Part shown: piece after piece, positions 9,229-38,227 of the stretch
Layout: every line of letters begins with the position of its first letter
Numbering within the stretch: the first letter of the stretch is position 1
Sequence record: DRR723986_7470
Reading direction: 5' to 3' (one strand)
Length of the DNA stretch: 48,451 nt
The notes under the pieces: generated by a model
The model's database searches: none
Told to the model about the DNA's origin: nothing
Seen by the model: the letters and a program-made list of their open reading frames with translations, nothing else
Position numbers and translations under genes: made by a program

Positions 9229-9263
9229 CGCCGAGGGGGTTGCAGCAGGGGTCGAGCGCGCCT

Positions 9264-9608
9264 TCAGGCGCGCAGGATCTCATCTTCCGCCAGCTGGCGG
9301 CCGCAGTTACGCGTTACCACCCGCACAGTTCTCTGGCAGGTTTCCAGCCAGGGAATGTTGGTTTCCGTCTTGAGCGCGCGAACATAGCCGCCGTCCGTCA
9401 TACAGGCAATGCTGGTCTTATTCACTGTCCAGTCACCTTCGCTGGTGCGAGGCTTGCGGTTGCAGTAGAACCAGATGCCACGGCGATCCTGCATCACATA
9501 CTTGGCATCCGCCGGCAGGAAAACCTTGCGCCCGCCAATCACGGCAAACACTTCCAGTTCACTCTCAGAATTCGATTCCATGGTCGCTGTTGGGGTAATT
9601 GTCAGCAT
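9264..9608 (-). CDS. Hypothetical protein (114 aa)
   Basis: Strong RBS (AGGAGAGG) before ATG; own upstream regulatory region with a CRP-type box. Confidence 0.75.
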   Translation of the reverse strand: MLTITPTATMESNSESELEVFAVIGGRKVFLPADAKYVMQDRRGIWFYCNRKPRTSEGDWTVNKTSIACMTDGGYVRALKTETNIPWLETCQRTVRVVTRNCGRQLAEDEILRA

Positions 9609-9724
9609 AGCGAACCTCTCCTATTGGTTGTTGTGTTCCGCTGAAAACCCGATACCGCGGGGTAATCCTTTGCCGCGTTATGCGGTATGGAATTAGTTAT
9701 AGGCAGGAGGAATAACTGGGACAA

Positions 9725-9740
9725 TGTGATTTGGCTCACA
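9725..9740. promoter_or_regulatory. CRP/Vfr-family binding site
   Basis: TGTGA-TTTGGC-TCACA is an exact TGTGA-N6-TCACA match with A-rich flanks, in an intergenic region. Confidence 0.75.
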
Positions 9741-9795
9741 AAAACGGCCGATTTTCAAAAACAGCTGAATCGCTGCCAAAATTTTCTTTGCGGGC

Positions 9796-9822
9796 AAAAA
9801 AAATGGCCCTCGTGGGCCATTT
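9796..9822 (-). terminator. Rho-independent terminator ending the chemosensory operon
   Basis: Minus strand reads AAATGGCCC-ACGA-GGGCCATTTTTTTT, about 22 bp after the stop at 9845. Confidence 0.85.
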
Positions 9823-9844
9823 CCGGTGCCAAAACTTTATCGGC

Positions 9845-10258
9845 TCAATTGGGGATAAGTTCTAGCTGGGGCGGCGATCCGGGCACAGGGCGCATCATCC
9901 GCAGACTGCCGCTGCACTCTGCTGCAAGGTCGGAGGCTTCTTCCACTGAGCGCATGACCATATGCAGGGAGAGCGCCGACCTGCCCTCCGTACTGCCGGC
10001 ACGGCGCTTGATCGTCGCCAGACCGTGATCATCGATATGCCCCAGCACCACTGCGTTCAGCAGGTAGTCACGGATCACCTGCCGATTCACCTGGTCCTGC
10101 AGGTACTGCTGATAACCCTGGTCACCGAACACGCGATTGAGAACCGCTATATCGTCCTCGGTGAGCGGAGCGTCACTGAACGGCGTTTCGGCACCGAAGG
10201 CGTCTTCGATCCCGGCTAATACCTCGTTCATCTGCAACTGATTCTTCCTCGTTTTCAT
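9845..10258 (-). CDS. Hypothetical protein (137 aa), last gene of the chemosensory operon
   Basis: Starts 3 bp after the CheW-like gene stop and is followed by a terminator. Confidence 0.75.
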   Translation of the reverse strand: MKTRKNQLQMNEVLAGIEDAFGAETPFSDAPLTEDDIAVLNRVFGDQGYQQYLQDQVNRQVIRDYLLNAVVLGHIDDHGLATIKRRAGSTEGRSALSLHMVMRSVEEASDLAAECSGSLRMMRPVPGSPPQLELIPN

Positions 10259-10261
10259 TGC

Positions 10262-10714
10262 TCAGGCCTGTCTGGCCATTTCCACCATCCTGCCTTCGAG
10301 CGTGGCAAGGTCCGGCACCTGGTACAGCACGCCGTCCTGGCGAAAAGCGGTCAGGGCATAGTCAGCTGCATCGTCCGCCGCATCCTCTACCGCCTCGGTG
10401 ACGGCCTGAACCCTGAGCCCCGCAGAGCGCAGTACCACACCCCAGTAGGCGATACCCGTTGCCCCCGGGCCCAGCAGTACTGCAATCAATCCTGTGCCGC
10501 CATGCGCGGCGCCCCAGTGAGCGTCATCCCCTGCCTGCAAGTCAAGCACCGGAACCTGTTCACCGCGCCAGGTGATCTGGCGCGGCGGCGCGCTAGCGTC
10601 CGCGGGCCGGGTCACAATTTCAGCAAGACAGTTGTCGGGCACCGCCCACAGGTCACGCTCTGTGCAGGGAAGCACAACGCACTGCGTAGAAGCTGTTTTG
10701 TTCATGGCGTTCAC
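10262..10714 (-). CDS. CheW-like coupling protein (ChpC-like)
   Basis: CVVLP...WAVPDNCLAEIV, ITWRGEQVPVLDL and VYQVPDL-type ending. Overlaps the kinase stop (GTGA). Position after ChpA matches chpC. Confidence 0.75.
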   Translation of the reverse strand: MNAMNKTASTQCVVLPCTERDLWAVPDNCLAEIVTRPADASAPPRQITWRGEQVPVLDLQAGDDAHWGAAHGGTGLIAVLLGPGATGIAYWGVVLRSAGLRVQAVTEAVEDAADDAADYALTAFRQDGVLYQVPDLATLEGRMVEMARQA

Positions 10715-13700
10715 TGCAGGCTCAGCTGCCGACCGGTCAGCTTGTTAATGTCCTGGACCAGTAATGGGAAGTTAAACGGCTTGCCCATATACCCGTTACA
10801 ACCCGCTTCGGCGGCCAGCTTCCGGTGTTTCGACCCGGTCCTGGAGGTGACCATGATCACCGGGATCTGAGCATAGCGCGGCGTCTTGCGCAGTTCTTTC
10901 AGGGTCTGGATACCATCCTTCACTGGCATTTCCACATCCAGCAGGATCACGTCGGGCAAGCGCAGCGAGGCGTTCAACAGTTCCAGCGCGGCCATCCCGT
11001 TTTCCGCGGTGACAGTTTCAACGCCCAGGGTGTCAAATTTGCTGGTCGCCACCATCCGCTGGGTACGCGAATCGTCAACAACCATAACCAGCATCTGTTC
11101 CACCTTTTCCTCGGGCATCGCTACCCGTCTCACGCCATCGGCGGCAAGACTCTCCACCAGCGCATTCAGATCAAGCGCAACAATCGCACGACCATCGGCA
11201 GTCGTCGCGCCGCCCGCCAGACCCGGAACCCGGGCAAACTGTTTGCCCAGGGTACGGATGACCAGCTCCAGCGCCTGTTCCACGTTATCAATTGCAATTG
11301 CCATACAGCGTGAATCCCGCCCGGCCACAATGACCGGTATGGTCGCGCCCCAGGCCTTGCGCTCGGGCATGCTTTCACCATGGCAGATAGTGGCAAGATA
11401 GGCCGGCTCACAGGGCATGCCGAACAGGTCGAGGACCTCATCGTTTTCAATCGCCGTAAAGAAGCGCTCCACCGGAACGTGCTCCACTGCCACCAGCCCG
11501 TCCAGCGGAATGGCATAACTGTGCTCGCCTGCGGCAACCAGCAAGGCACCATTCGCGGTGATATTGGAAGGAATCCTGATGCTGAAAGTCGTACCCTGGC
11601 CAACGGTTGATTCGATATCGATATCCCCGCCAATGTGCTGGAGTTCGCTGAGAACGATATCCATACCCACGCCGCGTCCGGAAACCTCGCTGAGCCGTGC
11701 CGCGGTGGAGAAGCCCTTGTGGAAAATCAGGCGCAGCACCTCGGCTTCGCTCATCGCCTCTAGGTCCAGATCAAGACCCTTGCGATACGCTGTTTCCCGA
11801 ATAACTTCCGGGTCCATTCCCCGGCCGTCATCGGTCAGGCGCATGACGTAATCACCGCCCCGCTTGCTGATATCGATACTGATTCGGCCGCTGCGGGGCT
11901 TACCCAGTGCTACCCGGGTGTCCGGATCCTCGATCCCGTGATCCAGTGCGTTGCGGACCATGTGCTCAAGAATTACCTGGCAGCGATTGTAGTTATCACG
12001 GTCCAGCTTGCCGGTCTCGTTCAGCACCCGGAAAGTAACATCCTTGCCAAGGTCAGCGCCGACTGTCCTGACGATGCGGCGCAAGCCCGGCATCAGTCGG
12101 GAAACCGGTATGACCCGCGCTGCCTGGATCGCCGAGCGCAGGGATGACATCGCGCCATTCTGTTGCTTGAGCAGGGCTTCCACCATCGCATTCTGGCGAC
12201 TGGTGAGCTGGATCAGTTCACTGAGGTCTTCGATCCCCTCGCGCAGTATGCTGGCAGCTTCCTGTAGCTCGGAGTACTGGTCCATTTCCAGCGCGTCGAG
12301 GCTGGAGTTAGCGCGATCGCCGCGGGCGGTCACGTTCATCAATGCCCGATCGGCTACCCGGGTGATATGGGAGCGTACCGAGGACAACCTGCCCTGCAGT
12401 TCCCCGAGGGCCAGCTTGCTGCGAACCGTGCCCTGCGAGGAACGGACCCCGAGCTGCTGAGCCTGGTTGGTAAGGTTCATCAGGTTGTCGACGGCTTCTG
12501 CGCTGAGCCGGATCGTCTGCTGCGCCGCCAGGGCCTTGGCCCCTTCGTCGGCCAGCTTCTTGTCCCTGGCGCGGGTGGTCTCTCTGGAAACTTCCTCAGT
12601 CTCTTCAGCGGGAGCTGCGGCAATCGGCTGGCTGACCGGCTCGCTGACCTGCTGGCCAGGCTCAGCAGCGGCCGCGGTGTCCGGTGCTGCTGCAGGCTCC
12701 CCTGCCGGCAATTCTGATGCAATGTCTGCTCGGCTATCCTGAATAGATTCAAAGCCGCGGACAGCCGCATCAAGCCAGGCGTTGACGATCCTGAAGTAAT
12801 CGCCTGCGGCAGCCGCTTGCGGACGCGGTAACTGCTCGAGCAGCGTCTCAAAATTGTGAATGAGCGTGCCGTACCGTTGCAGGCCAACGCCCTTGGCTAT
12901 GCCTTTAAGGGTATGCAGTATGCGAGGTACCGGCGCGTAGGCTGAATCGGAATCAATGTCCTGCTCCCACTCGCTGATCGCGTCCTCCAGCTTTTCAAGC
13001 TCAAGCGCACCTTCCTCGATAAAGGCATCCAGGAAATCGGCGAAAAGTTCAGCATCGCTCTGGGAGCTGTAACTGAAGGTGATACCAGCAGGTATGCAGG
13101 AGACAGCGCCCACCGGAGAACTGGCGGCCTCAACCGGTACCGCCTGTTCGGGTTCGGACTCAGGCTCAATGACGGACTGCGGTGCGGATGTGTTGCTTAC
13201 TGTGATAGCTGCTACCGGCGGGGTTGGTGAAGCGACCGATGCCGCAGCACTGTCCGCATGATCTACCAGCGAGGGCATATCAAGTTCCGCGGCGAAGTCG
13301 GTTTCTCCCAGGCTCTGCAGCATGGCATCAACATCGGTCTCGGAATTCGAAGACAGCTGCCCGAAGTTGGCGTCATCGATATCCTCGCCAAAAATATCCT
13401 CCGCTTCCAAAACAGCGACGGGGTCACTATCGTGTTCCTGGCTTTGCTCTTCGCCAAATGCTTGTTGCTCAGGCTGCGCGGGGGCGCCCAGATCCATCGG
13501 AGATGCCGCAAGTTCCTCGGCGATGTCGATCTCTTCGGTAGCCGGGACGCTACCGAGATCCCAGTCACTGTCATCAAACAGGAAGTCATCGCCACCGGAT
13601 TCAAGCGCTACCTTGTCCGCAGCCAGCTCCATCGAAGCCGGCTGCATGGCAGCCTCAGATTCCAGAGGATCTTCATCGACATCACCCAGGAAGGATCCCA

Positions 13701-15048
13701 GCTCATCATTGGCGGACATCAGCCCGGCGTCACAATCCGCAGGCGTGTTCAGCAGGCGTTGCTCAACCGGACTGAAAATCGCGTCTGTGTCAGGGCCGAT
13801 ATCCTCTGCCGCCAGTTGCTCACCGTCAGCTGCGCCGTCGTTAGCCGGGTTCATGCTATAAAAGTCGATCGCGGGCAGGTCAGCCAATGCTTCAGGCTCT
13901 GACTCCGCTACAGCGATTGGCGGAATAAAATCATCCTGCAGTACGCGACTCCAGCCGGGATCAGCAGGAGTGGCCAGGACGCGCAGGGCAATGGCATCAA
14001 TCTCGTGCTGACCCAGGCGCTGCAGGCACTGCGGCAGTTGCGGGCTGAGTTCGGTGAGAGACACATAGCCCTGGGCAAGCAGCTCGGTGCTGCTCACCTC
14101 GTCGGTGGCAAGTGAGCAATCCAGCGCCAGCGTGTCTGCGGGAAGCTCGAATTGTTGCAGTACGGCAGCCACGCGCTGCTGGAGGTCGTCCATCAACTCT
14201 CCAAGCAAGGGAGTGACGGCCGCTACAATGCTGGAGGCACGGGCCAGCGGCTGGGCGAAGTCCTGATGGAACTCGATCGCTGTATCCCGCTCGTCTGCTT
14301 CCAGGCTGACCAGCTCTTCCTCAATCCGGTCATCATCAGCCAACTCAGCGACAGCCTCTTCATCCAGTAGTGAATCCAGCGCCGCCTCGTCTTCTTCCAG
14401 CACTAGGTCCAGCACGTCGTCAGCCTGCGCCAGCAGCGACCCACTTTCATCCTCTGCTTCGATAGCTGCAGGCGCGGGAATCACCGGCTCTTCCGCTGGG
14501 CTTGCGATAACGCTGTCAACCACAGCAGGCTCTGGCACCGGGTCCGGCTGGGTAAGCTCTACCGGTTTTGCACTCGGGACCTTCTTGATAACCAGGAAAC
14601 GCTCACCAATATCGTCCTGTTCACGCAGACCGAGGATATCGCTGCCAGAGTGCATCCGCGGCGTGGAAGCTGCCGGCTCCGGCCGCTTTGACCGGTGATC
14701 GACATACATCAGTTGAGCCTGAGCCTGCTCGCGCTCTGCCGGCCTTGATTCATTGCGGTAGATATCGCTGCTCTCGCCAACCGAGGAAACCACGATTTCC
14801 TCTTCGACAATCGCATTCAGTACCGCATCGTCATTACTCCCACGAATAAGTGGGCGCGCCGCCATCGCCGCCTCTGCTTCGGTCAGCTCGGCAAAGTCAT
14901 CCGCTTCCTGGCTAACGGAGAACAGCTTCTCTGACGGCTCGGACATATCCTGCTCCAGCAGCCAGCTGAGCGTTTTTTCCTGCTGCTCGTCTGCCGTTTC
15001 CGCTGCCTCGTTGGCAACCGCCTGGTCCTGCTTTTTTTCAGTCTGCAT
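10711..15048 (-). CDS. CheA/ChpA-like hybrid kinase: long acidic N-terminal region, Hpt, HATPase, CheW, receiver
   Basis: Hpt ILHTLKG; N box EHMVRNALDHGIE; G1 DDGRGMD; F box IFHKGFST; G2 SGRGVGMD; receiver VVDDS...LLDVEMP...MVTS...KPF. Start uncertain (15078, 15054 or 15048; GGAGA precedes 15048). Confidence 0.9.
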   Translation of the reverse strand: MQTEKKQDQAVANEAAETADEQQEKTLSWLLEQDMSEPSEKLFSVSQEADDFAELTEAEAAMAARPLIRGSNDDAVLNAIVEEEIVVSSVGESSDIYRNESRPAEREQAQAQLMYVDHRSKRPEPAASTPRMHSGSDILGLREQDDIGERFLVIKKVPSAKPVELTQPDPVPEPAVVDSVIASPAEEPVIPAPAAIEAEDESGSLLAQADDVLDLVLEEDEAALDSLLDEEAVAELADDDRIEEELVSLEADERDTAIEFHQDFAQPLARASSIVAAVTPLLGELMDDLQQRVAAVLQQFELPADTLALDCSLATDEVSSTELLAQGYVSLTELSPQLPQCLQRLGQHEIDAIALRVLATPADPGWSRVLQDDFIPPIAVAESEPEALADLPAIDFYSMNPANDGAADGEQLAAEDIGPDTDAIFSPVEQRLLNTPADCDAGLMSANDELGSFLGDVDEDPLESEAAMQPASMELAADKVALESGGDDFLFDDSDWDLGSVPATEEIDIAEELAASPMDLGAPAQPEQQAFGEEQSQEHDSDPVAVLEAEDIFGEDIDDANFGQLSSNSETDVDAMLQSLGETDFAAELDMPSLVDHADSAAASVASPTPPVAAITVSNTSAPQSVIEPESEPEQAVPVEAASSPVGAVSCIPAGITFSYSSQSDAELFADFLDAFIEEGALELEKLEDAISEWEQDIDSDSAYAPVPRILHTLKGIAKGVGLQRYGTLIHNFETLLEQLPRPQAAAAGDYFRIVNAWLDAAVRGFESIQDSRADIASELPAGEPAAAPDTAAAAEPGQQVSEPVSQPIAAAPAEETEEVSRETTRARDKKLADEGAKALAAQQTIRLSAEAVDNLMNLTNQAQQLGVRSSQGTVRSKLALGELQGRLSSVRSHITRVADRALMNVTARGDRANSSLDALEMDQYSELQEAASILREGIEDLSELIQLTSRQNAMVEALLKQQNGAMSSLRSAIQAARVIPVSRLMPGLRRIVRTVGADLGKDVTFRVLNETGKLDRDNYNRCQVILEHMVRNALDHGIEDPDTRVALGKPRSGRISIDISKRGGDYVMRLTDDGRGMDPEVIRETAYRKGLDLDLEAMSEAEVLRLIFHKGFSTAARLSEVSGRGVGMDIVLSELQHIGGDIDIESTVGQGTTFSIRIPSNITANGALLVAAGEHSYAIPLDGLVAVEHVPVERFFTAIENDEVLDLFGMPCEPAYLATICHGESMPERKAWGATIPVIVAGRDSRCMAIAIDNVEQALELVIRTLGKQFARVPGLAGGATTADGRAIVALDLNALVESLAADGVRRVAMPEEKVEQMLVMVVDDSRTQRMVATSKFDTLGVETVTAENGMAALELLNASLRLPDVILLDVEMPVKDGIQTLKELRKTPRYAQIPVIMVTSRTGSKHRKLAAEAGCNGYMGKPFNFPLLVQDINKLTGRQLSLQ

Positions 15049-15089
15049 GCTCATTCTCCGTTTCGCGGGTAGTGCCATTCCCTGGCAAG

Positions 15090-17510
15090 CTAGTGATGGC
15101 CCATCGATTGCGACGTCTGCCCCGAAGACTCTGCCGCTGCTGAAGGTTCAGTGACGGCTGCCTCGTCCGGCAGATCATCCGCCAGACCCACGATCGCTTC
15201 GGCTGCCCGGAAGCAGCGGTTGGTCAACTCACGAGTACGTCCCGCGTCGAAATCTCCCGGCGTGCGATAAGAGGCGACCAGCGCGGGCAGGGCCTGCACT
15301 ACGTCCTCGATCAGCGACTCCAGCCGGGCGTCCGCATCGAGTTCTCCTTCGAGTACCCGATCGAGCAAATCCTGTGCTGCCCAGCCCAACTCGCCCAGGA
15401 CATTGGCACCTACCGCACGTCCGTTGCCCTTGAAGGTATGGAAATGACGACGAATATCCCGCAGGTACTCATTGCTGACCGGGTCCTGCAGCCAGAGCGG
15501 GGTCAGCCGTTGCAATTCAGCTACGATTTCTTCTGATTCCTCCAGGAAAACCTCACGAAACTCCGGCGGCAATTCGCCGTCACGCACGTAGCCTGCTGCA
15601 CTGCCGGTCGCGGCGACTGTCGCCGACGCGCCCGGCGACAGGCCGTCAAGGTAAGCTTCTAGTTCGTCCGCACGTTGTTCTGCCAGTGCGATCAAGTGGG
15701 TGGTGTCATCCAGTGGATCGATAATCGACCGCTGCAGGTGCAGCTCGATCTGGGCAAACGCATCGGCAAAGCAGCGGAAGGCCTCATCCTCATGGACACT
15801 GCCTGCCTTACTGGCCGACTCCAGCCAGTCGCGACAGCGCTCGATCACCGTACCCTCTCGCTCCATGCCGGCAAAGGCCAGGGCGCCGGAGATCTCCGAC
15901 AGCAACTGCAGTGACAGGCGGATACCCTTGCGCTCAGGCGTGTCATCAAGCTCCGCCAGGAACTCCCGGGACAGGTCGAACAACAGATCGATATCCGGCT
16001 CCCCGCGATCAGCATCGCTTACCGCAGCGCGCAATGCCTCGTGCCCGCGATCACTCTTGTTGAGATAGCGATGCAGGGCCAGGGTAAGTTGAAGGGTTGT
16101 TTGCTCGTCATAGGGCTTGCGTGCCATCGCCCTGGAGAGGGCCTTGCGCCGCAGAATGGCGTGCAGATAGTTCTCTACCAGCGACATCTGGGCGAATGTC
16201 GCGTTGACCACGCTCTCCCTCAGCTCGAAGTCCTTGCTGGAAAACGAACTGCAGACGCCGTGTTCGAGCTTGTATTCAATGTCGAGTTTAACGTCAACGA
16301 TACTTCTTACGATCGAGGTGATGGCCTGTTCCAGACGCTCAGGTTCGTTGCGATAGCTTCCCTGGTAGACGCGACGCAGGCGCTCTGCGACATCCTCAAG
16401 GGAATCCGCATGGGCGACCTGGCCCGCAGCGTAGAGGCGATGCTGGGCCCGTTCGATCCCTTCGAGGGCAACACTGTCGTCAGGGTCGTCATCCTGGCCC
16501 TCGGCGATCGCCATATCGTTGGTGGTAATGTAATCGACGACCCCGTTGAGATTGTCCAGCGCGCCAGACAACGCGGTTACCAGTGCATCGATATGCACCA
16601 GCCCACTGCGAGACATCTCCAGCACGCTGTCGTCAATTGCAAAGGCTTTGCGAATCGCGGCGATGTGCACCGGGTGCGTCCTGACTGAGGCCATGTAGTA
16701 CAGCATCTGCAACTGGCATTCGTCATAGTCGACCGAGGTGTCAATCGCCGCGCCATTTTCGCGCGCGTACTTGATCATAAACGCGCCGGTTTTAAACAGC
16801 TGGGCAATGCATTCATCGGGTGCAATCAAACCGCCAGCGACGCCCTCGCAGATACCGATGAGAGTGAACCAGAAGCGCTCGGGCGGCGTGCCAGCAAACA
16901 GGGTCTGCATCTTGCGCGATATACGGGCGACAGTTTTCATGCTCTCGCGGGTATTTTGCTTGCGCAGTGCCGCTTTCGCCATTTCAAGGTAGAGGGCGAG
17001 CATGACATTCGCGCGATTCTTGATTTCCTCATCGTTGGCGGGAGTGGCATCAACGGTAATACCAGCGTCGGCAGGAATTTCCATATGGAAAAACAGGCCC
17101 TGCGGGCGCGGCCTTTCACCGACCCAGCGGCGAAGGTCATTCACGTACTGCTCCAGCCCGCGACCGGTATCCTGGCGCGCACTCTGCACATGGGCCAGAT
17201 AAGCAGGCAGTACCTTCAAGGCCTGCATCAGGCCGCCCATGGTGAGCTTGCGCCGCTCCCCTTCCACCTTGTCCTTATAGAGAAAGTTGAGGCTGCGTTC
17301 CATCTCAATGGTGAGCATTTCACCTTTGCGGATGCCAAGGGCCCGCAGCGTCGAGGTAATCTGGTGAACCGCCCACATACACTGCAGCAGCGGCTGCTTC
17401 TGGTTAGCGTCCTTGCTGTACTCGACCAGGGCCTGCTCGGCGTTTTCTGCCTGTTTATTCATCAGGCCGACAACCCACTTCAGGGAAACAATATCGGTTT
17501 TATGTGCCAT
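15090..17510 (-). CDS. ChpA N-terminal/FimL-like protein with C-terminal Hpt domain (no kinase core)
   Basis: N-terminus SLKWVVGLMNKQAENAEQAL...VHQITSTLRALG resembles the ChpA/FimL start. Pseudo-Hpt LSEISGALAFAG. Intact Hpt EVFLEESEE...RRHFHTFKGNGRAVG. Confidence 0.8.
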   Translation of the reverse strand: MAHKTDIVSLKWVVGLMNKQAENAEQALVEYSKDANQKQPLLQCMWAVHQITSTLRALGIRKGEMLTIEMERSLNFLYKDKVEGERRKLTMGGLMQALKVLPAYLAHVQSARQDTGRGLEQYVNDLRRWVGERPRPQGLFFHMEIPADAGITVDATPANDEEIKNRANVMLALYLEMAKAALRKQNTRESMKTVARISRKMQTLFAGTPPERFWFTLIGICEGVAGGLIAPDECIAQLFKTGAFMIKYARENGAAIDTSVDYDECQLQMLYYMASVRTHPVHIAAIRKAFAIDDSVLEMSRSGLVHIDALVTALSGALDNLNGVVDYITTNDMAIAEGQDDDPDDSVALEGIERAQHRLYAAGQVAHADSLEDVAERLRRVYQGSYRNEPERLEQAITSIVRSIVDVKLDIEYKLEHGVCSSFSSKDFELRESVVNATFAQMSLVENYLHAILRRKALSRAMARKPYDEQTTLQLTLALHRYLNKSDRGHEALRAAVSDADRGEPDIDLLFDLSREFLAELDDTPERKGIRLSLQLLSEISGALAFAGMEREGTVIERCRDWLESASKAGSVHEDEAFRCFADAFAQIELHLQRSIIDPLDDTTHLIALAEQRADELEAYLDGLSPGASATVAATGSAAGYVRDGELPPEFREVFLEESEEIVAELQRLTPLWLQDPVSNEYLRDIRRHFHTFKGNGRAVGANVLGELGWAAQDLLDRVLEGELDADARLESLIEDVVQALPALVASYRTPGDFDAGRTRELTNRCFRAAEAIVGLADDLPDEAAVTEPSAAAESSGQTSQSMGHH

Positions 17511-17513
17511 CCC

Positions 17514-18368
17514 CTAAACCTCCACTTTCAGATAGGCGGTAACGCCGCTTTGCGGCACCCGGAACATCGACGGGTGTTGCCAGCACACATCTTCACCAGC
17601 GCCCAGCACCAGCAGACCGCCGGGGCGAGTCCGCTGGACCAGCTGGTCCATGATGTGATGGCGCGTTGCGCGGTCGAAATAAATCAGAACGTTCTGGCAA
17701 AAGACGACGTCGAAATCCGCGAACGGCGCACTGTCTATATGCAGCAGATTGCTGTGAAAGAAATTGGTACGGGCGCGAATCCGGTCGGCAACGGTATAGC
17801 AGCCAGGGCCCGCAGGCTCAGTAAACGCATGCCGATAATGCAGCGGAATACTGTGCAGCGCCTGCTCGGAATACAGCGCCTCGCGCGCGGTGCTCACTGC
17901 GCCAAAACTGACATCGGTGCCGATACCATGCCATTCCACGTTGGCGCGATGCCGGCGGAAGACCCGCTCAGCAACCATACCCAGTGAATACAGCTCCTCC
18001 CCGGTCGCGCAGCCAGCGCTCCAGATCGAGAACTCGGGGCCGACACTATCGTTTTCCAGGCGCTCGTTGAGCGTGGTTTCAATGCAGTCGAAGGCTTCCA
18101 GCTGACGGAAGAACCGGGTCTCCTTGACCGTCAGCAAATCAATCAGGGCCAGCCATTCCGCCCTCGAAGCAATGCTGTCACCCAGCGCTGCAAGGTAGTC
18201 AGCTGGCTCCTGCATGCCCAGCAACTGCATGCGTTGATCGACATGGTCCGCCAGCACCCAGGGAGGACTCTCGATGGTAATGCCTATGCGCGCGCGCAAT
18301 TGCTGCAGCAGACTGGCGACCTGGTCGTCAGTCAAACCGGTGCGACGTTGAAGGGCTGTAGCTCTCAC
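17514..18368 (-). CDS. CheR-family methyltransferase (PilK-like)
   Basis: LTVKETRFFR, IWSAGCATGEELYSL, GTDVS, FDVVFCQNVLIYF. Confidence 0.93.
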   Translation of the reverse strand: MRATALQRRTGLTDDQVASLLQQLRARIGITIESPPWVLADHVDQRMQLLGMQEPADYLAALGDSIASRAEWLALIDLLTVKETRFFRQLEAFDCIETTLNERLENDSVGPEFSIWSAGCATGEELYSLGMVAERVFRRHRANVEWHGIGTDVSFGAVSTAREALYSEQALHSIPLHYRHAFTEPAGPGCYTVADRIRARTNFFHSNLLHIDSAPFADFDVVFCQNVLIYFDRATRHHIMDQLVQRTRPGGLLVLGAGEDVCWQHPSMFRVPQSGVTAYLKVEV

Positions 18369-20464
18369 ACGGACACCCGGTTATCGATAGTGGGATCAAC
18401 TTCCAGCGCACTCATTTCATCTTCGCCATACACCCTGCGCGCACTGTTGATATGCTCGACCTCGGCCCCGCCCTTAGCAGTCAACGGCGTGAGCTTGGCG
18501 TCTTCGGGGATACGGAACTGGCTGAGGTTCTCGGCCACATCGCGCATGGAGGCCTGCAGCTGCGACACGCCCAGCTGGGTGAATTCGCTGTATTCGCTGA
18601 TATCGACATTGCGCTCGCGGATTTCCGCCATCGAGTTGTTCATGTGCTGGGCACTGACGGCCGACTGGGCAGCCGCCTCGTCTACCGAGCGAACAATTGA
18701 ACTGATAGCGGTGGAACCCTCGTTAATATCTTCCAGCGCACTATCCAGACGTTCGATGTACTCGAGAATGGTGACCACGGTACCCACCGTGTTTTCCATG
18801 CTCTCCATATTTTCAGCCGACATGTTCTGCAACATGCGTACCTCGGAGATAATCTTGCGACCTTCTTCCTCAGCCTCGCGCAGTAAGTCACCGATCGCCT
18901 CGGCGATGCCCAGGAAGGGGCGGCCATACTCACCGGCCTTTTCGGCCTCGATGCGGGTGTTGATTGCAACGACCGAAATCTTGGTATTCAGTGCCTGGAT
19001 GTATTCAGCGGCATTGGTGACCGACTGGATAAGCTCGCCCTGGCGTTTCGCTGATTTGGACGTCTCCTGAACAGATTCACGTACATCAGCAGAGGCTTTC
19101 GACATATCCTTGGTCAGTTCATAACCGCGAGCGACACGGGCGCGATTCTGTTCAGAAGCCTTGGCCGCTTCCGCGGTCGAATGTTTGATCTCCTCACTGG
19201 TGCGGACCATTTCGGTTGCCGCAGTAGTTGACTCAACTACCGACCGGGTCAGCTGCTTACCTTTCTCAACCTGACCGCGGGCGGTCTTGCCGATCTTGCT
19301 GATTTCCTCGATCGATACTTCAAACGGTGTGCGAATATTGCGAATCAATTCCCGCTGGCGCTCGGTAGAAACATTGATCTCGTGGGCGATATCTTTGGTC
19401 AGCTCATTGTCTTCCGGCACATGTACCGTCAGGTCACCCTCTGAAATCTGGACCAATGCCCGGTTGATTTCTGCGACACCCGCCTCAGTGTTTACCACCC
19501 GACGACGCTGGCCGCGAAACATGATCACCAGCAGGCCAACGGCCAGCAGGGCCGGCGCGCCAAACAGGGTCATCAGCGTGCCACGGTCAAACATACGGGC
19601 ATTGTTGAGCCGGTCCAGGGCAGGGCCCGCCGCGGAGATCGCATCCGCCAGTTCCGGGCTGGATGCCACAATCTGCTCCCGGGCGCTGGCAGCCTCCACC
19701 ATCTGGGCGGAAGCACCCGCAATCTGGTCAATAGAGCGGGAAATCGTGGAGAACAGTTGGGACGCTTTGCTGATTGAGTCCAGAGCGTCCGGGTCGCGCA
19801 GACGCTCGACACCCATTAACCGGTTCCCGTTCTTCAGTGCCTCGACGATACGGTTGAAGCCGGCGGCGTCCTGGCGGAATTCGTCAGCAGCAGCCTGCGC
19901 CTGCTCGCCACCTTCAAGTATCTTGTCAATATTGCGGGCAATGCGCTCGGTCAGCCACAGGGTCTTCTGTGCCACGGCCACCGTGTCAGCAGAGACTTTC
20001 TCATCCCGGAGAATATCAACCACTGCTGCAAACTCGCTCTGGATCGGGCGGATGTTTTTCTCCAGCTCACCGGAGACACCGTGGATAAAGACAATGCCGG
20101 GACCAGCCTGGGTCAGGGTCTCCGCGCCACGCTTGACCGGTTGCCACAGGGCCTGGATCTCAGCGACCTGGTCGTCTATTCCGGCGCCCTGCATGCTGCC
20201 CAGCAACAAGTCGAACTCACCCACCTGCTGCTCGAGGCTGCGGAAGTTAGCGGAGTCGCCGGCCGACGTTTCCCGCGCATTAACCAGGATTTGCTGTTGC
20301 AGAAGCCGCATGTCGTTCGCGAGTACGCGGTATTCACTTTCCTGGCCGGCTTCCTGCTGGACCATAAAGAAGGTGTAGAAAACACCGCCCAGGCAGGCCA
20401 GGATCCCAAGTGTAATAACGCTCACCCAGAATGAAGATGCGCCGCTTTTGATTGCTTTAGCCAT
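18365..20464 (-). CDS. Methyl-accepting chemotaxis protein (PilJ-like)
   Basis: Two TM segments flanking a helical periplasmic domain, HAMP-like EGDLTVHVP, and signalling hairpin AINTRIEAEKAGEYGRPF. ATG 20464 with GAGG RBS preferred. Confidence 0.88.
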   Translation of the reverse strand: MAKAIKSGASSFWVSVITLGILACLGGVFYTFFMVQQEAGQESEYRVLANDMRLLQQQILVNARETSAGDSANFRSLEQQVGEFDLLLGSMQGAGIDDQVAEIQALWQPVKRGAETLTQAGPGIVFIHGVSGELEKNIRPIQSEFAAVVDILRDEKVSADTVAVAQKTLWLTERIARNIDKILEGGEQAQAAADEFRQDAAGFNRIVEALKNGNRLMGVERLRDPDALDSISKASQLFSTISRSIDQIAGASAQMVEAASAREQIVASSPELADAISAAGPALDRLNNARMFDRGTLMTLFGAPALLAVGLLVIMFRGQRRRVVNTEAGVAEINRALVQISEGDLTVHVPEDNELTKDIAHEINVSTERQRELIRNIRTPFEVSIEEISKIGKTARGQVEKGKQLTRSVVESTTAATEMVRTSEEIKHSTAEAAKASEQNRARVARGYELTKDMSKASADVRESVQETSKSAKRQGELIQSVTNAAEYIQALNTKISVVAINTRIEAEKAGEYGRPFLGIAEAIGDLLREAEEEGRKIISEVRMLQNMSAENMESMENTVGTVVTILEYIERLDSALEDINEGSTAISSIVRSVDEAAAQSAVSAQHMNNSMAEIRERNVDISEYSEFTQLGVSQLQASMRDVAENLSQFRIPEDAKLTPLTAKGGAEVEHINSARRVYGEDEMSALEVDPTIDNRVSV

Positions 20465-21020
20465 CACCCAAATCCTCATCACTTTCTGCTACGGCGATTG
20501 CGGCATCAGCCAACTCGCCCTCTTTTACCAGTTTGTCCAGATCCAACACCGCCAGGAATTCTTCCCCATGGGAAAATCCACCCAGGGTAAAACCCGCGAC
20601 TGCAGGATCTGCTTCCCGATTCATGTCCCGCTCATCCAGCGGAAATTTCATGCTGCGCCTTACCTCGCTCAAGGTAAGCGCGAAGTGAACACCGGGGCGG
20701 CGAACTACCATGCAGTAATCCCTGACCCGTCCCGTATAGGGTTCAGCGCGCAACAGCGCGTCGCCGCTCATAACCGGGATCAACCCGCCGCGATGGGTAG
20801 CCAGCCCCATAACCCAGGGTCGGGTTCCGGGGATAGGCGTCACCGCCGGTGTCTCAATAATTTCATCCAGCTCGCCTTCACCAACCAGCAGGGGAATGCC
20901 GGCAATCGCCAGCGCAGTCCCCGCCCAGTACATGACGTAGTCCTGCTCTTTGGGAGGCGATACCGCCGCAGTGGCAAAGCGCTGCTGCAGAGCGGTGAGC
21001 GTGTCCATGGCAAGGGTCAT
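20457..21020 (-). CDS. CheW-like protein (PilI-like)
   Basis: EII...TPIPGTRPWVMGLATHRGGLIPV is typical of PilI. Lies between the pilG-like and MCP genes. Confidence 0.88.
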   Translation of the reverse strand: MTLAMDTLTALQQRFATAAVSPPKEQDYVMYWAGTALAIAGIPLLVGEGELDEIIETPAVTPIPGTRPWVMGLATHRGGLIPVMSGDALLRAEPYTGRVRDYCMVVRRPGVHFALTLSEVRRSMKFPLDERDMNREADPAVAGFTLGGFSHGEEFLAVLDLDKLVKEGELADAAIAVAESDEDLGDG

Positions 21021-21025
21021 CGTCT

Positions 21026-21436
21026 TCAGGCCGCCTTGTCTGCGCCCGTATAGTTGAAGATGAGCTGACGCAATACGCTTTCCGGGGGAATCTTCGTAAC
21101 GTGCGCCGTTGCACCCCGCGCCTGGCCCTTGGCGATATCAAAAATGCCATCCGAGGAGGACAGCATGACTACCGGCGTGTTGCGGGTGTCTTCCGCGTTC
21201 CGAATAAGCGTGCAGGTCTGGTAGCCGTCAAGTTCAGGCATAGTGATATCGAGGAAGATCAGGTCCGGCTTGAAGCGTCGCAACATACCCAACGCCTTGT
21301 AGCCGTCCTCTGCACACTCGACTTCACAGCCCATGCCCTTGAGCGTATGGGACATCATCATGCGAATGGTTTTCGCATCATCGATGACGGCGACCTTGAC
21401 GCCGCTCACATCCATTTCCTGGTTTTGATCTGTCAT
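21026..21436 (-). CDS. Single-domain response regulator (PilG-like)
   Basis: KVAVIDDAKTIR, FLDITMPELDGYQTCTLI and PVVMLSSSDGIFDIAKG closely follow the PilG pattern. AG-rich RBS before ATG 21436. Confidence 0.88.
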   Translation of the reverse strand: MTDQNQEMDVSGVKVAVIDDAKTIRMMMSHTLKGMGCEVECAEDGYKALGMLRRFKPDLIFLDITMPELDGYQTCTLIRNAEDTRNTPVVMLSSSDGIFDIAKGQARGATAHVTKIPPESVLRQLIFNYTGADKAA

Positions 21437-21581
21437 GTTCACCCTCTCTCTTACCTTCGCCGACAAACGGCGCAACCATGGAAGTCGATTGCAGTATTTG
21501 GAGAGCGCGCTTTTGCTTCAAGGAAAAACCCGAGTTTTCCAAAGAATCTGGAGTTTTCGAATTCGGAGAAAAGTCAGGAAA

Positions 21582-22505
21582 TTACTTGCGACTGGCGGGA
21601 ACAGGCTCGCCGGGGAAGAGGAGGTGCAAGGCGGACGCCAGCTGTTCCGGTGTGCCACTTCGACTGACTTGTCCAGTGGCGAGTGCCGCCATGGGCATAC
21701 CGGCACAGACCGCGCTATCCGGATCCTGTATCCAGGCGCGTCCACCGGCCGCCACCAGCTGTGCCAGGGCCGCACTACCATCGTCACCCATGCCGCTGAA
21801 CAGGATAACCCCGGGCGCGGGCAGACCGGATGCGGCCAGCGTCGCGATCACTGCATTTATATCAGGCGCATGGCGGTCGCCCCAACCGAGTCCCAGCACC
21901 GACAGCCGCGCCGAGTCATCCAGGGTGATCCTGTGCCTGGGGGGAACAATAAACAGGTGGCCGGGGCGCAAGGTCTCGCCGCCACCTGGAATCGACATCG
22001 AAAAGAGCGGGTTCTCCGGGCCGAGCTGCTCAAGCTGTTCCTGATGATCCGGGTCGTAGTGCTGGGCATACAGGAAGGACACGGGCGGCACACGGGCAAA
22101 GGCATTGAGGAAAGCCTGTACGGCTCCGGTCGCTCCGGCGGATCCGGCCAACAGCCAGACCGGGAAGGGCCCGGATGACGGTGTGTCGTCGGCGCCAGCG
22201 AGCTCGAGCAAGCGCTGGGCCAGCAGTTGAGCCCAGGCATCCAGCGCCGCCGGATCCCGGCTGTCAGGCAGCACATCGAGAGCCAGCAGGCGTGCACCGC
22301 TGGCCCGCAGCTCTGTCAGGTAGTCCTCAGCGGAATCATCACACGCCCAAACCCGGCAGTGACCCTCACGCAGCAACACCAGCAACATTGAACGGGAGGA
22401 GGCGATTTCAGCCCTGCAACCTGCCCCCTTCAGCGCCCGAGAGAGGCTAAGTGCACAGGCTGGCGGCAGAGCCAGCCCGACGGTCAGGGCCCCGCGGTCA
22501 GTCAC
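21582..22505 (-). CDS. CheB-type methylesterase (ChpB-like)
   Basis: Catalytic triad motifs WLLAGSAG, YAQH and FSGMGDDG; also WIQDPDSAVCAGMP. N-terminal region is a degenerate receiver-like domain. Confidence 0.85.
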   Translation of the reverse strand: MTDRGALTVGLALPPACALSLSRALKGAGCRAEIASSRSMLLVLLREGHCRVWACDDSAEDYLTELRASGARLLALDVLPDSRDPAALDAWAQLLAQRLLELAGADDTPSSGPFPVWLLAGSAGATGAVQAFLNAFARVPPVSFLYAQHYDPDHQEQLEQLGPENPLFSMSIPGGGETLRPGHLFIVPPRHRITLDDSARLSVLGLGWGDRHAPDINAVIATLAASGLPAPGVILFSGMGDDGSAALAQLVAAGGRAWIQDPDSAVCAGMPMAALATGQVSRSGTPEQLASALHLLFPGEPVPASRK

Positions 22506-23109
22506 CGGGGAACAGGAAGTTCCGGAACGGTTCGAGGTGACCCGGCTGGAAGTCCTTAAGCTCGTAGATATTGAACTTGTGCATCAACGAGAGGCAGCGC
22601 TGGAAGACCCGGTCCGCATCGTAGGCAGAGGGCGGAATCTGGTACTTATCGGTAATCTGGGCAAATATCATTGAGGCGATCTTGCGGCGGGTCTCGTCGT
22701 CCCGATACATCACCTGGTCCACAGGCGATGGCACAATGGGCGCACCGTAGATGAGGAATGCCTCCCAGCGCCTTGGGTCTCGCGCATCCGGCAGTTGCGC
22801 CACCAGGAAGCGCACCATATTGCGCAGATCCAGCCGGGGCGGCAGCACGTCCCGCTGCAGCCAGTCCCGGACGTCACTTTCCCGCCAGTTCCTGTTGATG
22901 GCGAGAATACTGAGGATCCTGCCCTCGGTCTGGGGTGGGGCAGCCCCGGCCAGATCCCAGAGCAGATTCAGCCGGGCGGAAAAGCCGAGGCTGGTCGGCA
23001 GCTCTTCCAGGGCCAGCAGCTGGAATTCGGCCGCGTAGTCATCCACAGATTTGGGGAGGGTCGGGACTCCGATCTCAGGCTGTTCCGTCTTTCTCGTTTT
23101 CCTGGTCAC
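22498..23109 (-). CDS. Hypothetical protein with a probable Cro/CI-like HTH N-terminal domain
   Basis: FSARLNLLWDLAG...EGR...SDVRDWL...LP resembles repressor-type HTH domains. Overlaps both neighbours. Confidence 0.6.
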   Translation of the reverse strand: MTRKTRKTEQPEIGVPTLPKSVDDYAAEFQLLALEELPTSLGFSARLNLLWDLAGAAPPQTEGRILSILAINRNWRESDVRDWLQRDVLPPRLDLRNMVRFLVAQLPDARDPRRWEAFLIYGAPIVPSPVDQVMYRDDETRRKIASMIFAQITDKYQIPPSAYDADRVFQRCLSLMHKFNIYELKDFQPGHLEPFRNFLFPGD

Positions 23110-24413
23110 CCGCGCTCTCCCTCTGTGGTCGACAGCTGCTTGATCCGCTTGTTGTAAGTGGGTACTGACACACCTGCTATGTCAGCTTTTATAAGGGTTG
23201 GTACGCTTTTGTCCAGGCGCTGAAGGTGGGCAAGCAAGGTGTTTTCCAGCTGCAACAGGGGGGATGGGCCGCCCAGCGCCGCACCTCTAACCCATTCCCG
23301 GATCAGCCGCGCCGGCTCCCGCCAATGCTGGTTTGCCGCCCGCACCGCCGCGCGATCCTCGATTTTTGGCAACCAGCGGCCAATATTGCGCGACGGTGTC
23401 TGGAGAAACTCTGCTACCCGTGGCTGCTCCATCTTATAGCGATCGCCCGCGGCCAGAACCAGTTCATCCTGCAGCCAGGTGCCCAGCGGCCAGGGTGTTT
23501 CATCCTCGACTGCCAGCTGCAACACTTCGGCCAGCGCCGCTTCCAACTCCTCGAACGCCGTCGGTATATAGGTTTCCAGCTCGCCCTGGGGGCTATCCAG
23601 CACTTCCAGAAAATTTTCCAGCAGGGACGACATGCCCCCGTCGGTATCCAGGGGCACCCTGAGTCCGAGATCCGCCGGGGTGAGCCATTGACGACCACCC
23701 TGGTCCAGGGCCGAGCAGACCCGTTCGCGAACCTCGGTGATATTGCCGGGCCACTTATGGGCCAGCATGGCCCGCTCCGCCTCTGGAGTGAATCCCTTGA
23801 CTGACCTGCCGCGGGACAGCGCTTCCTGGTTCAATATCTTCTCGGCCCAACGCAACACAGCCCGACCCCGCTCCCGCAGAGGCGGAACCTGGATAGGGTA
23901 GCCGGCGAAGCAGCTGGCCAGGCGCTCTTCAAGGGCCTGCGTGGCGACCAAGCTTTCGAGCCGGTCGGGAAACAGGGCGATGAGACGCACGCGAGGCAGG
24001 TAGCGGGGCGGCCGGGCACCGATAAAGGTGCGAGTGCTGATCATTCTGGCCAGCTTGCCCTGGGTTTCCGGGTGCATCAGCTGGGGTGACTTGAACACCA
24101 GGGTTTTCCCCTCGGCCTGGTCGAGCAGTTCGCAGATCCGGCGGAAGGCCTGTTCGCGGCTGCGAAATTCCCGACAATCTATGAGCTGCAGAGCGTCCGG
24201 AGCGCCGCCACCGGCATCGTGAACTATTTTGGCGATATACATCTTGCCCGTTCCACGGGCACCGATCACCGCAACCGGCACATCAACGGCCGCCAGGAAT
24301 ATTGCCTGGTCGACCGCTCCTTCCATGCTGTCGACGACGTAACCGCCGGCGTTGTTGTCCAGGCCACCGGCTTGAGCCGGGCCTGGAACCGGGCCGGGTG
24401 TGTCACCAGCCAT
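23106..24413 (-). CDS. Degenerate sigma54-interaction (bEBP-like AAA+) protein
   Basis: Walker A GARGTGK, IQVPPLRER, HKWPGNITE. No GAFTGA loop; Walker B position reads LVFKSP. Start is ATG 24413 or GTG 24419, with an in-frame stop at 24441-24443 upstream. Confidence 0.8.
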   Translation of the reverse strand: MAGDTPGPVPGPAQAGGLDNNAGGYVVDSMEGAVDQAIFLAAVDVPVAVIGARGTGKMYIAKIVHDAGGGAPDALQLIDCREFRSREQAFRRICELLDQAEGKTLVFKSPQLMHPETQGKLARMISTRTFIGARPPRYLPRVRLIALFPDRLESLVATQALEERLASCFAGYPIQVPPLRERGRAVLRWAEKILNQEALSRGRSVKGFTPEAERAMLAHKWPGNITEVRERVCSALDQGGRQWLTPADLGLRVPLDTDGGMSSLLENFLEVLDSPQGELETYIPTAFEELEAALAEVLQLAVEDETPWPLGTWLQDELVLAAGDRYKMEQPRVAEFLQTPSRNIGRWLPKIEDRAAVRAANQHWREPARLIREWVRGAALGGPSPLLQLENTLLAHLQRLDKSVPTLIKADIAGVSVPTYNKRIKQLSTTEGERG

Positions 24414-24512
24414 GGCCACTGCCCCAACGCACGCAGTCGATCATAAAACCCGTGTTGAATTGCAGGTCAGGTGGCCAAACCGACATCGCCAGGCTATTGA
24501 TTCCGCGATGTA

Positions 24513-24529
24513 TTATCAAACTTTGATAA
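24513..24529. promoter_or_regulatory. Perfect 17-bp palindrome (candidate operator)
   Basis: TTATCAAA-C-TTTGATAA, about 100 bp upstream of the first gene of the chemosensory operon. Confidence 0.55.
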
Positions 24530-24653
24530 ACATACAAGAGTGCCGATTCCCTCTGGCAGACAGCTCAAACCCGGACCGTACCAGGCTAGCCGGTAAACCA
24601 ATTTACTATAAAAGTCCTGACCGGGACCACGCTCTCAGAACAGGCCTATCCCA

Positions 24654-25646
24654 TCACCCCATTCTCTCCATTTCGCGAAAGCGCCCCGGGGTCACCGCAG
24701 TCCAGCTTTTGAACGCACGGTTAAACGCACTCTGGTCCGAATAGCCAAGCAGGAGCGGGATCTCAGACAGCACCAGGGAGGTGCGGACGAGGTATCGTCG
24801 CGCCAGCTGCTCTCGAACTGCGTCCAGCAGGACCTGGTAAGAAAGGTCATAGTTGCCCAATCGGCGTTGTAAGGTCCTCGTCGACAGGTTCATCCCGGAT
24901 GCAACTTTCGGCAGGGTCGCACCACCTTCCGGTATCGACTTCAGTAACACCGATTGCAAGCGCTTCAAAAAGGGGTCGTCTGCACCCGCTACGCAGGAAA
25001 AAGCGTAATGCTGGTGCTGGCGCATGGCCTGATAGTTCTCCGGCAGTGCAGCGAAGATAGGCCGTTGAATCGCGGTCCCATCAAAGGTCAGTCCGGGGTA
25101 TTTCGAATTGAAGCTTACCGGGCAATCAAAGAATCGCTCGAAGGGAGCGATGTCCTCGGGTTCCTCGCCTGTCAGCTCAACTGCCAACAGCTCGCAACTA
25201 CCGGGGAATCGCTGCCGGAGAAAGGTTATCAGCGCCGTCAGGCCAACCTGCACAAACGACGCGTTTTCGTTACCCAGTTGATCAGGCCAGGCCAGCTTCC
25301 AGCCCGGGCCGACCACCGATAGCTCGGCAAAATTTACGCCGTAAAAATGACGCTCGCAGAGCAGATAGGTCTGCAATGCATCGGCAACGTTGTCGCTGTT
25401 CAACAACAGGTATCCCAACACACCGGCATGCCTTACCTGAACCTCAGAGCCAATCTGCAGCCCAACGGGCTGCCCGGGGGATAGGGCTTCCGCTCTCGCC
25501 AGCAGCGCGCGCCAATCCTCAACACTCACGGTTTCTTGTTGCGACAGAAGGGCCAGCCTGGTCTCCAGGTCCTGGCAGACGATGTTATGCCGCACCATCC
25601 ACAAATGGAGGATCTGGCTAAAACTGCCCGATATGCGAATCAACAT
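24654..25646 (-). CDS. AraC-family transcriptional regulator (OruR/VqsM-like N-terminal domain)
   Basis: GLQIG...HAGVLGYLLLNS, FFDCPVSF, and HTH region VASGMNLSTRTLQRRL...LGYSDQSAFNRAFKSWTAVTPGRFR. Confidence 0.93.
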   Translation of the reverse strand: MLIRISGSFSQILHLWMVRHNIVCQDLETRLALLSQQETVSVEDWRALLARAEALSPGQPVGLQIGSEVQVRHAGVLGYLLLNSDNVADALQTYLLCERHFYGVNFAELSVVGPGWKLAWPDQLGNENASFVQVGLTALITFLRQRFPGSCELLAVELTGEEPEDIAPFERFFDCPVSFNSKYPGLTFDGTAIQRPIFAALPENYQAMRQHQHYAFSCVAGADDPFLKRLQSVLLKSIPEGGATLPKVASGMNLSTRTLQRRLGNYDLSYQVLLDAVREQLARRYLVRTSLVLSEIPLLLGYSDQSAFNRAFKSWTAVTPGRFREMERMG

Positions 25647-27065: not shown

Positions 27066-29528
<2,463 letters not shown>

Positions 29529-36422: not shown

Positions 36423-36428
36423 TGGTCG

Positions 36429-38200: not shown

Positions 38201-38227
38201 GAGCGTAATTTTCCCGCAGGCTGAATT

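Follow-up and report, generated by a model that had tools for sequence, protein, structure and literature searches.

The 48,451-nucleotide (nt) stretch of DNA analysed here, sequence record DRR723986_7470 (the window), carries a predicted chemosensory operon of the type IV pilus (Tfp), or Pil-Chp, class in which the giant kinase ChpA is divided between two genes and to which two regulator genes are attached. The cluster consists of twelve co-oriented open reading frames (ORFs) on the minus strand, from 24419 down to 9264. A sequence-only reading of positions 9264..24533 had described a twelve-gene series with domain labels; all twelve ORFs lie where it had placed them, and the Pfam domains fit the labels. 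Junctions in the series are overlaps of 4-26 nt or gaps of 3-11 nt, the exception being a 106-nt gap before the gene for the single-domain receiver (REC) protein. The gene for the AAA+ protein overlaps that for a 203-amino-acid (203-aa) XRE-like protein with a helix-turn-helix (HTH) fold by 4 nt, and the XRE-like gene in turn overlaps cheB by 8 nt. The features are listed below in the order of transcription; Hpt stands for histidine phosphotransfer and MCP for methyl-accepting chemotaxis protein.

23106..24419, minus strand: AAA+ protein, sigma-54-activator-like, degenerate, short form of 437 aa with C-terminal Fis-type HTH-like motifs (Pfam Sigma54_activ_2 and AAA_lid_14 only)
22498..23109, minus strand: XRE-fold HTH protein, 203 aa (no Pfam family; fold match of the AlphaFold2 (AF2) model)
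21582..22505, minus strand: CheB-type methylesterase without a recognisable receiver (CheB_methylest at residues 118-293)
21493..21544, minus strand: promoter region of the pilG-like gene (-35 TTGAAG at 21516-21521, 17 nt, -10 AATACT at 21493-21498; degenerate dyad at 21529-21544)
21026..21475 (likely start 21436), minus strand: PilG-like single-domain response regulator (Pfam Response_reg)
20457..21020, minus strand: PilI-like CheW (CheW, 56 bits)
18365..20482, minus strand: PilJ-like chemoreceptor with a diverged signalling domain (MCPsignal, 42 bits)
17514..18368, minus strand: PilK-like CheR methyltransferase (CheR, 156 bits)
15090..17510, minus strand: N-terminal part of ChpA, a separate 806-aa Hpt protein (Hpt, 60 bits)
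10711..15078, minus strand: C-terminal part of ChpA, 1455 aa, with Hpt, HATPase_c, CheW and REC (Pfam)
10262..10714, minus strand: ChpC-like second CheW, weak (CheW E 0.0032, below the cut-off; 34-57% conserved in relatives)
9845..10258, minus strand: conserved 137-aa helical protein, last gene of the operon (no family)
9796..9824, minus strand: intrinsic terminator with an 11-bp stem, a 4-nt loop and a U run (fold -23.2 kcal/mol, z -3.6)
9696..9740, minus strand: promoter of the 114-aa gene (CRP-type box at 9725-9740, -35 TTGTCC at 9719-9724, 17 nt, -10 TATAAC at 9696-9701)
9264..9608, minus strand: conserved 114-aa protein with its own promoter (no family)

Judged by its protein sequences, the locus is a Tfp-class (Pil-Chp) chemosensory operon, in a form that we call type A of the Halieaceae. 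Gene for gene, the window proteins match the canonical cluster that L087, a different genome of the order, carries: REC-REC-CheW-PilJ-CheR-ChpA(2187 aa)-CheB-CheW. Of the two REC proteins there, the window REC is 50% identical to the first and 31% to the second; the receptor shares 28% identity with the canonical PilJ over 627 residues, and CheR and the kinase are 36% and, over about 770 residues, 33% identical to their counterparts. Of 201 genomes sampled from the order, 180 gave a match to the kinase core, and among the matches listed, long fused ChpA ORFs share 35-42% identity with it and score about 300-380 bits. Against the window core, other CheA proteins of the same genomes score about 150-200 bits and fused ChpA about 350. 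Kinase-core trees were built from 57 rows under LG+G4 and 54 rows under LG+C20 by quick searches, with support from the Shimodaira-Hasegawa-like approximate likelihood ratio test (SH-aLRT) only; the Tfp-type cores form one clade (99% SH-aLRT) apart from other CheA proteins, which bears out the Tfp class proposed from the sequence alone. The layout is that of a multi-Hpt kinase with a C-terminal receiver, with Hpt domains in both ChpA parts and REC at residues 1331-1444 of the second.

The cluster holds one REC gene, which is PilG-like, and no PilH-like one; no search for a PilH-like gene was made outside it. For the REC gene the probable start is 21436 rather than 21475, since the ATG at 21436 and the GAGGG that precedes it are conserved in an alignment of 21 relatives; the product would then be 136 aa. 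In the CheB protein no REC domain was found in residues 1-117, even at E 10, and at the positions that we take to be those of the catalytic Ser, His and Asp triad the window residues align with those of canonical ChpB. The methylation enzymes vary within type A: both CheB and CheR are present in 23 of 67 loci, neither in 31 and CheR only in 13. A relocated CheB, which the sequence-only reading had counted among the departures of this system, is thus not a steady one.

Two sets of relatives were compared, namely 80 Halieaceae loci chosen through the 203-aa protein and a separate sample of 121 genomes of the family. The split of ChpA, which had been read from the window alone, recurs throughout: the two parts lie in separate ORFs in 63 of 63 testable relatives among the 80 loci. 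In the window a gap of 11 nt and a change of frame separate the two ORFs. Residues 1-300 of the 806-aa protein match the N-termini of ChpA ORFs elsewhere in the order, and among the matches listed these ORFs are mostly fused, at 1900-2800 aa, the shorter ones lie mostly on short contigs, and ORFs of split length occur only in two Halieaceae genomes, G001 and G185 (818 and 849 aa). Each part carries one HxxKG Hpt motif, near residue 692 of the 806-aa protein and near residue 724 of the 1455-aa protein, and the parts are 38-76% and about 60-81% identical among relatives. On this comparative evidence the break in ChpA is real, old and fixed in the lineage.

The two regulator genes accompany the split kinase. 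In 78 of the 80 loci the AAA+ gene is the immediate upstream neighbour of the XRE-like gene, and a PilG-like REC gene follows within 5 kb downstream in 70 of the 73 loci with enough sequence. Among the 121 family genomes, 62 have both the XRE-like gene and the split form, 2 the split form only, 4 the XRE-like gene only, 12 the fused form only and 41 none; in one of the two split-only genomes a contig end truncates the sequence. The coupling of regulator genes to the cluster that had been suggested from gene order therefore holds in relatives, with 62 of 64 split-form genomes carrying the pair. The type A operon is common to about half of the Halieaceae, a marine family, and in it the split and the pair of regulators have become fixed as derived characters.

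To describe the regulators we aligned the AAA+ protein with NtrC1. The Walker A motif (G..GTGK, with TGK invariant across 25 orthologues) and the sensor II arginine are kept. At the GAFTGA position the protein reads EQAFRRI, and this loop is likewise replaced in the 25 orthologues; Walker B reads TLVFKS instead of TLFLDE, the first acidic position being an invariant Lys and the next residue a Ser in 24 of 25; and sensor I is replaced by LFP. Because GAFTGA, Walker B and sensor I are all replaced, the predicted protein cannot be a working sigma-54 activator. The 25 orthologues share two C-terminal Fis-like HTH motifs, which in the window protein were read by eye, and one homologue carries PF02954. 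An Atlas search with the AAA+ protein yielded nothing but generic clusters of sigma-54 activators. At 24513-24529, some 95-110 nt before the AAA+ start, the window contains a perfect 8+8 palindrome, TTATCAAA-G-TTTGATAA; it was not seen upstream of the AAA+ genes of relatives, where the upstream regions are not conserved.

The window form of this protein is the shorter of two. In 62 of the 80 loci the reading frame stays open for 220-730 further codons upstream, giving a long form of 720-1030 aa in most relatives (L003-L080; for example L045:7245-8699), and the short form was found in the window and in 14 other loci away from contig ends. The N-terminal extension of the long form gives weak PAS and GGDEF matches and also weakly matches a GGDEF protein of solved structure (E 0.0086). 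Aligned across 21 loci, it has P.G..I in place of GGDEF and a conserved R..D (RxxD) five residues upstream. This RxxD in a degenerate GGDEF domain suggests a candidate site for cyclic di-GMP (c-di-GMP), and with it a c-di-GMP input, and the long form may thus be a candidate c-di-GMP receptor fused to a pseudo-ATPase.

The 203-aa protein is highly conserved (81% mean column identity over 22 orthologues), and neither Pfam nor NCBIfam gave a match to it, even at E 10. In its AF2 model, with a predicted local distance difference test score (pLDDT) of 69, residues 38-124 match the lambda-repressor-type HTH, the best match having Z 7.3 and a root mean square deviation (rmsd) of 3.5 Å over 76 aligned residues; further HTH matches are modest (Z about 5-6.3, rmsd 2.4-4.7 Å, 62-76 aligned), and most of the top 30 structural matches are of the lambda-repressor type. 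Foldseek with the same model gave nothing at E 0.001 or better, and a PDB profile search gave matches at chance level only. We assign to the model a predicted five-helix XRE/lambda-repressor-like HTH fold. A profile search of 1.8 billion proteins returned only 73 relatives. Distant ones (L081, L082, L086) lie near TraG, TrwC/TrwB or TraI-type conjugation genes in all three annotated neighbourhoods, and no Pil-Chp-like cluster was seen in five screened neighbourhoods of such relatives; the Halieaceae gene looks like a domesticated mobile-element regulator.

Halieaceae also carry a sister cluster, which we call type B. It reads REC-CheW-MCP-(CheR)-ChpA(1800-2070 aa, fused)-CheW, has no regulator pair and adjoins homologues of three genes found at the flanks of the window cluster (TonB-like, 174-aa and 114-aa). 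Of the 121 genomes, 12 have type B alone and 7 have both types. Both trees (LG+G4 and LG+C20) join A and B as sisters with 99% support, each on a long branch, and the two are paralogous Pil-Chp-like systems of one family. Gene spacing implies an intact type A core in five of the seven genomes that have both. In G248 (L098), by sequence, a reduced type A stands beside an intact type B: the pair, the PilG-like REC and the 806-aa Hpt protein are kept, the receptor and CheW are gone, and the kinase protein is without its kinase core and CheW domains. G309 is probably also reduced, from gene spacing only. With MCPsignal the window receptor scores 42 bits, type B receptors 43-48 and canonical PilJ 150. 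The five departures from the canonical system that had been called independent are not so, since the single REC gene and the weak MCPsignal score are common to type B.

Upstream of the pilG-like gene the relatives share a -35/-10 pair and a dyad, CTGGAG-N4-CTCCAG, followed by a T run; with at most two mismatches the dyad is present in 52 of 74 upstream regions, as against 7 of 1480 shuffles. A copy of the dyad with A/T flanks also stands just upstream of small DUF4124 genes in L154 (G004) and L160 (G001). As a regulon site of the pair the dyad was rejected, for extra sites are few, and because similar sites occur in genomes without the XRE-like gene we assigned no dyad site to the pair. At the other end of the operon, the terminator predicted after the 137-aa gene was supported by folding: the hairpin and U run fold strongly (-23.2 kcal/mol, z -3.6), and a simple terminator scan did not list the hairpin.

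Five relatives were searched genome-wide for chemosensory, pilus, flagellar and cyclase genes. All of their CheW domains lie within this cluster (5/5), PilM is present in 5/5 and flagellin in 0/5, and a class III (CyaB-like) cyclase gene adjoins a Crp/Vfr-like gene in 5/5. The 'second or orthogonal' system of the sequence-only reading has some basis in that there are two paralogous systems, coexisting in 7 of 121 genomes, and is weakened in that type A is the sole CheW-bearing cluster in all five relatives; the cyclase and Crp/Vfr-like genes of the five relatives leave room for the usual cyclic AMP (cAMP) route.

From the observed domains, the split, the co-occurrence and the type B paralogy we infer each functional step of the working proposed here. 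The PilJ-like receptor, the two CheW proteins and the ChpA-type kinase would form the signalling core, with the kinase phosphorylating the PilG-like regulator. Pilus control is the likely output because type IV pilus genes occur in the relatives and flagellin does not, and an additional cAMP branch is possible because a CyaB-like cyclase and a Crp/Vfr-like gene are present. The C-terminal ChpA protein, having Hpt (HxxKG), kinase, CheW and REC, is probably a self-sufficient kinase, and the 806-aa protein with its own HxxKG Hpt would be a separate phosphotransfer partner or branch. The pair would most likely be DNA-binding regulators that set expression of the operon or of a small regulon, and the long AAA+ forms would bring a c-di-GMP-type input in most species, the short form of the window being without that module.

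Taken as a whole, a type A Pil-Chp operon with a split ChpA and a pair of DNA-binding regulators of the operon or a small regulon is the interpretation that we hold with moderate confidence. Several observations weigh against it. The window receptor falls short of the Pfam PilJ domain (PF13675; E 0.012, 16 bits, cut-off 26.6), with which type B receptors score 29-32 bits and canonical PilJ 66 bits. The window copy of the dyad has 5 mismatches, and of the dyad-like sites with at most one mismatch 5 lie in genomes without the XRE-like gene and 10 in genomes with it. In G211 the type A cluster follows gyrB immediately, and the interval from gyrB to the pilG-like gene contains no regulator pair. 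Conversely, the four genomes with the XRE-like gene only comprise two small assemblies and two (L029 and L080) without any CheA; in L080 an IS-type (insertion sequence) transposase follows a C-terminally shortened XRE-like gene, and in L029 the XRE-like gene looks intact and the chemosensory core is deleted. The linkage is confined to one family, so that shared descent could explain much of it, and a type B copy may exist elsewhere in the window's own organism. G211, L029 and L080 would equally fit a pair and an operon that are functionally unrelated neighbours, kept adjacent by descent within one family, as would the restriction of the linkage to Halieaceae, the conjugation genes near distant XRE-like kin (3/3) and the lack of conservation upstream of the AAA+ gene. 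We regard such mere adjacency as possible and rather unlikely, since in the window overlaps of 4 and 8 nt tie the pair to cheB, none of the 12 type B-only genomes has the pair despite a similar neighbourhood, and gain or loss of the pair tracks the split form across the 121 genomes.

Strict co-occurrence with the split form (62/64) would also fit a different proposal, in line with the transcriptional output suggested by the sequence-only reading: the pair would be that output of the pathway, and phospho-PilG or the free Hpt protein would control the AAA+ and XRE-like proteins. Translational coupling links the two genes of the pair to each other and the XRE-like gene to cheB, which points the same way, as do the lack of a receiver in the window AAA+ protein and the retention of the pair, REC and both Hpt-bearing proteins in the reduced type A of G248 (probably also G309). 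Contact between these proteins is hypothetical, however; two genomes keep the pair without any CheA, G211 has the cluster without the pair, the components of the cAMP route are present, and an independent sensor fits better with the PAS and GGDEF-like input that most relatives' AAA+ proteins have of their own. We think an output role unlikely, and just as doubtful is its fuller version, in which the pair, with an RxxD sensor and a domesticated XRE partner, would receive the phosphorelay through the PilG-like or 806-aa Hpt protein and pass it to transcription, the ChpA split having freed the Hpt carrier. Local or small-regulon control by the pair, upstream of the pathway, is favoured over output because the long forms have sensor domains of their own and the pair outlasts loss of the pathway in at least one genome. 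We would also give little credence to the cluster being the lineage's ordinary Pil-Chp orthologue with cosmetic differences only: although it is the sole chemosensory cluster in 5/5 relatives, keeps the canonical order from the pilG-like gene through chpC, and has published parallels in separate Hpt genes (PMC10782961) and in Tfp systems without CheB or CheR (PMC6391922), as far as the sections of these papers on which we draw extend, its fused sister type B, without regulators, coexists with it in 7 genomes, and its split and pair are fixed and derived. Two ORFs in different frames, 11 nt apart, might finally be put down to a sequencing error or a pseudogene; this is refuted by the same break in 63/63 relatives from independent assemblies, with both parts conserved (38-76% and about 60-81% identity), and we attach practically no weight to it.

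Beyond the terminator lies the 114-aa gene with its own promoter. Within the 48 kb a perfect CRP-type box, TGTGA-N6-TCACA, occurs once, at 9725-9740 (0.04 expected; at least one in 3 of 100 shuffles), and it abuts the -35 hexamer of this promoter, a consensus match at activating distance. In seven relatives the box is kept in none, the best matches having 5-7 of 10 positions; across eight aligned promoter sequences a TATAA block stands at -10 in 7 and TTG at -35 in 6, with the CRP box in the window only. The CRP/Vfr-box neighbour of the sequence-only reading is hence sound as an observation on the window and does not extend to its relatives. Most relatives have two or three A/T-rich TTTGGCA-like repeats before the 114-aa promoter (window 9774-9840), and in the window the third repeat position is occupied by the CRP-type box. 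The repeat was rejected as a shared operator, as it is not enriched in the window (4 matches, 5.3 expected).

The 114-aa protein is 63-80% identical in 7 type A loci and has homologues of 43-48% identity beside type B clusters; it has no Pfam or NCBIfam family, and an Atlas search gave only unnamed clusters. Orthologues of the 137-aa protein, at 42-64% identity, occur in 6 of the 7 loci reaching that point. Its AF2 model is helical (pLDDT 71); no Pfam, NCBIfam or PDB sequence match was found, and VIA-align gave generic helical bundles (best Z 6.3). In L029 the homologue of the 137-aa gene (L029:11243-11635) carries an in-frame stop.

The surroundings place the cluster on a chromosome. The genes dnaA, dnaN, recF and gyrB lie on the minus strand at 27066-33401 and yidC, mnmE and mnmG on the plus strand at 34728-40193, and near 36-38 kb the sign of the GC skew switches; the origin region of the chromosome lies within the window, and with dnaA, dnaN, recF and gyrB in it the cluster is chromosomal and close to the origin. 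The nearest matches of the 203-aa protein are in Halioglobus, Haliea and other Halieaceae, the closest being Parahalioglobus pacificus (82% identity). The locus is a lineage-specific Pil-Chp variant and neither an artefact nor a foreign island. A 101-aa ORF at 25758-26063, beside a fatty-acid hydroxylase gene, matches just the last 40 positions of a TauD dioxygenase model and is probably a gene remnant. An Rfam scan of positions 9000-25000 gave no match.

Pil-Chp is the model for surface sensing through pili and is known almost entirely from work on Pseudomonas. A full-text literature search for Halieaceae together with ChpA gave nothing, a broader search for Halieaceae pili gave nothing relevant among the matches listed, and a degenerate-GAFTGA regulator with a pilG chemosensory cluster was not found described in the literature searched; the type A variant is apparently undescribed. 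It offers, in abundant coastal bacteria, a natural variant in which a free phosphotransfer protein and a compact kinase stand in place of the single giant kinase. With it one can ask what purpose the many Hpt domains of ChpA serve, and whether pilus sensing can reach transcription and c-di-GMP by a route other than cAMP-Vfr. The same cluster is present in several cultured relatives, among them Parahalioglobus pacificus and Halioglobus japonicus, which makes it open to experiment.

Known systems share parts of this arrangement. FleQ and VpsR are atypical sigma-54-type activators that respond to c-di-GMP. The AAA+ domain of the window protein is of the same family (PDB matches to VpsR at E 1e-10 and FleQ at E 1e-8) and is likewise followed by an HTH region; unlike these proteins, it has no GAFTGA, Walker B or N-terminal REC-like domain, and the candidate c-di-GMP site in relatives is the RxxD of a degenerate GGDEF domain rather than the AAA+ domain. 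In Myxococcus xanthus, the chemosensory system Che3 is linked to an NtrC-like activator, CrdA, of canonical REC-AAA+-HTH layout. Type A resembles Che3-CrdA in having a chemosensory cluster beside a sigma-54-type regulator gene and differs from it in kinase class and in the lack of a REC domain and a sigma-54 contact loop in the window AAA+ protein.

Closer in class is Flm, a pathway of Comamonas testosteroni that belongs to the Tfp class and lacks CheB and CheR, according to the sections of its description on which we draw (PMC6391922). Methylation enzymes are dispensable there as in type A, 31 of 67 loci of which have neither; unlike type A, Flm comprises two REC genes and just one kinase gene, and those sections report no attached regulators (PMC6391922). 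A bipartite CheA with Hpt as a separate gene is also known, again from the portions of the report used here (Berry et al. 2023, PMC10782961). As in that system, the phosphotransfer domain and the kinase of type A come from neighbouring genes of one operon; as far as those portions describe it, type A differs in that both window halves carry an HxxKG Hpt, so that the kinase half is not Hpt-less, and in that the cut takes off some 800 residues from the multi-Hpt arm (PMC10782961). Of the Tfp class, too, is Pil-Chp of Pseudomonas aeruginosa, pilGHIJK-chpABC, for which the parts of the source on which we draw give the gene names and the link to cAMP-Vfr (PMC6391922). Unlike that system, the window cluster has ChpA in two genes, a single REC gene and two attached regulator genes, its cheB lies upstream of the pilG-like gene and encodes a protein without a recognisable receiver, and the signalling domain of its receptor scores 42 bits where canonical PilJ reaches 150. 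Like that system, it has the order REC-CheW-MCP-CheR-ChpA-CheW, a multi-Hpt kinase with a C-terminal REC and a kinase core of the same clade, and its relatives carry a CyaB-like cyclase and a Crp/Vfr-like gene.

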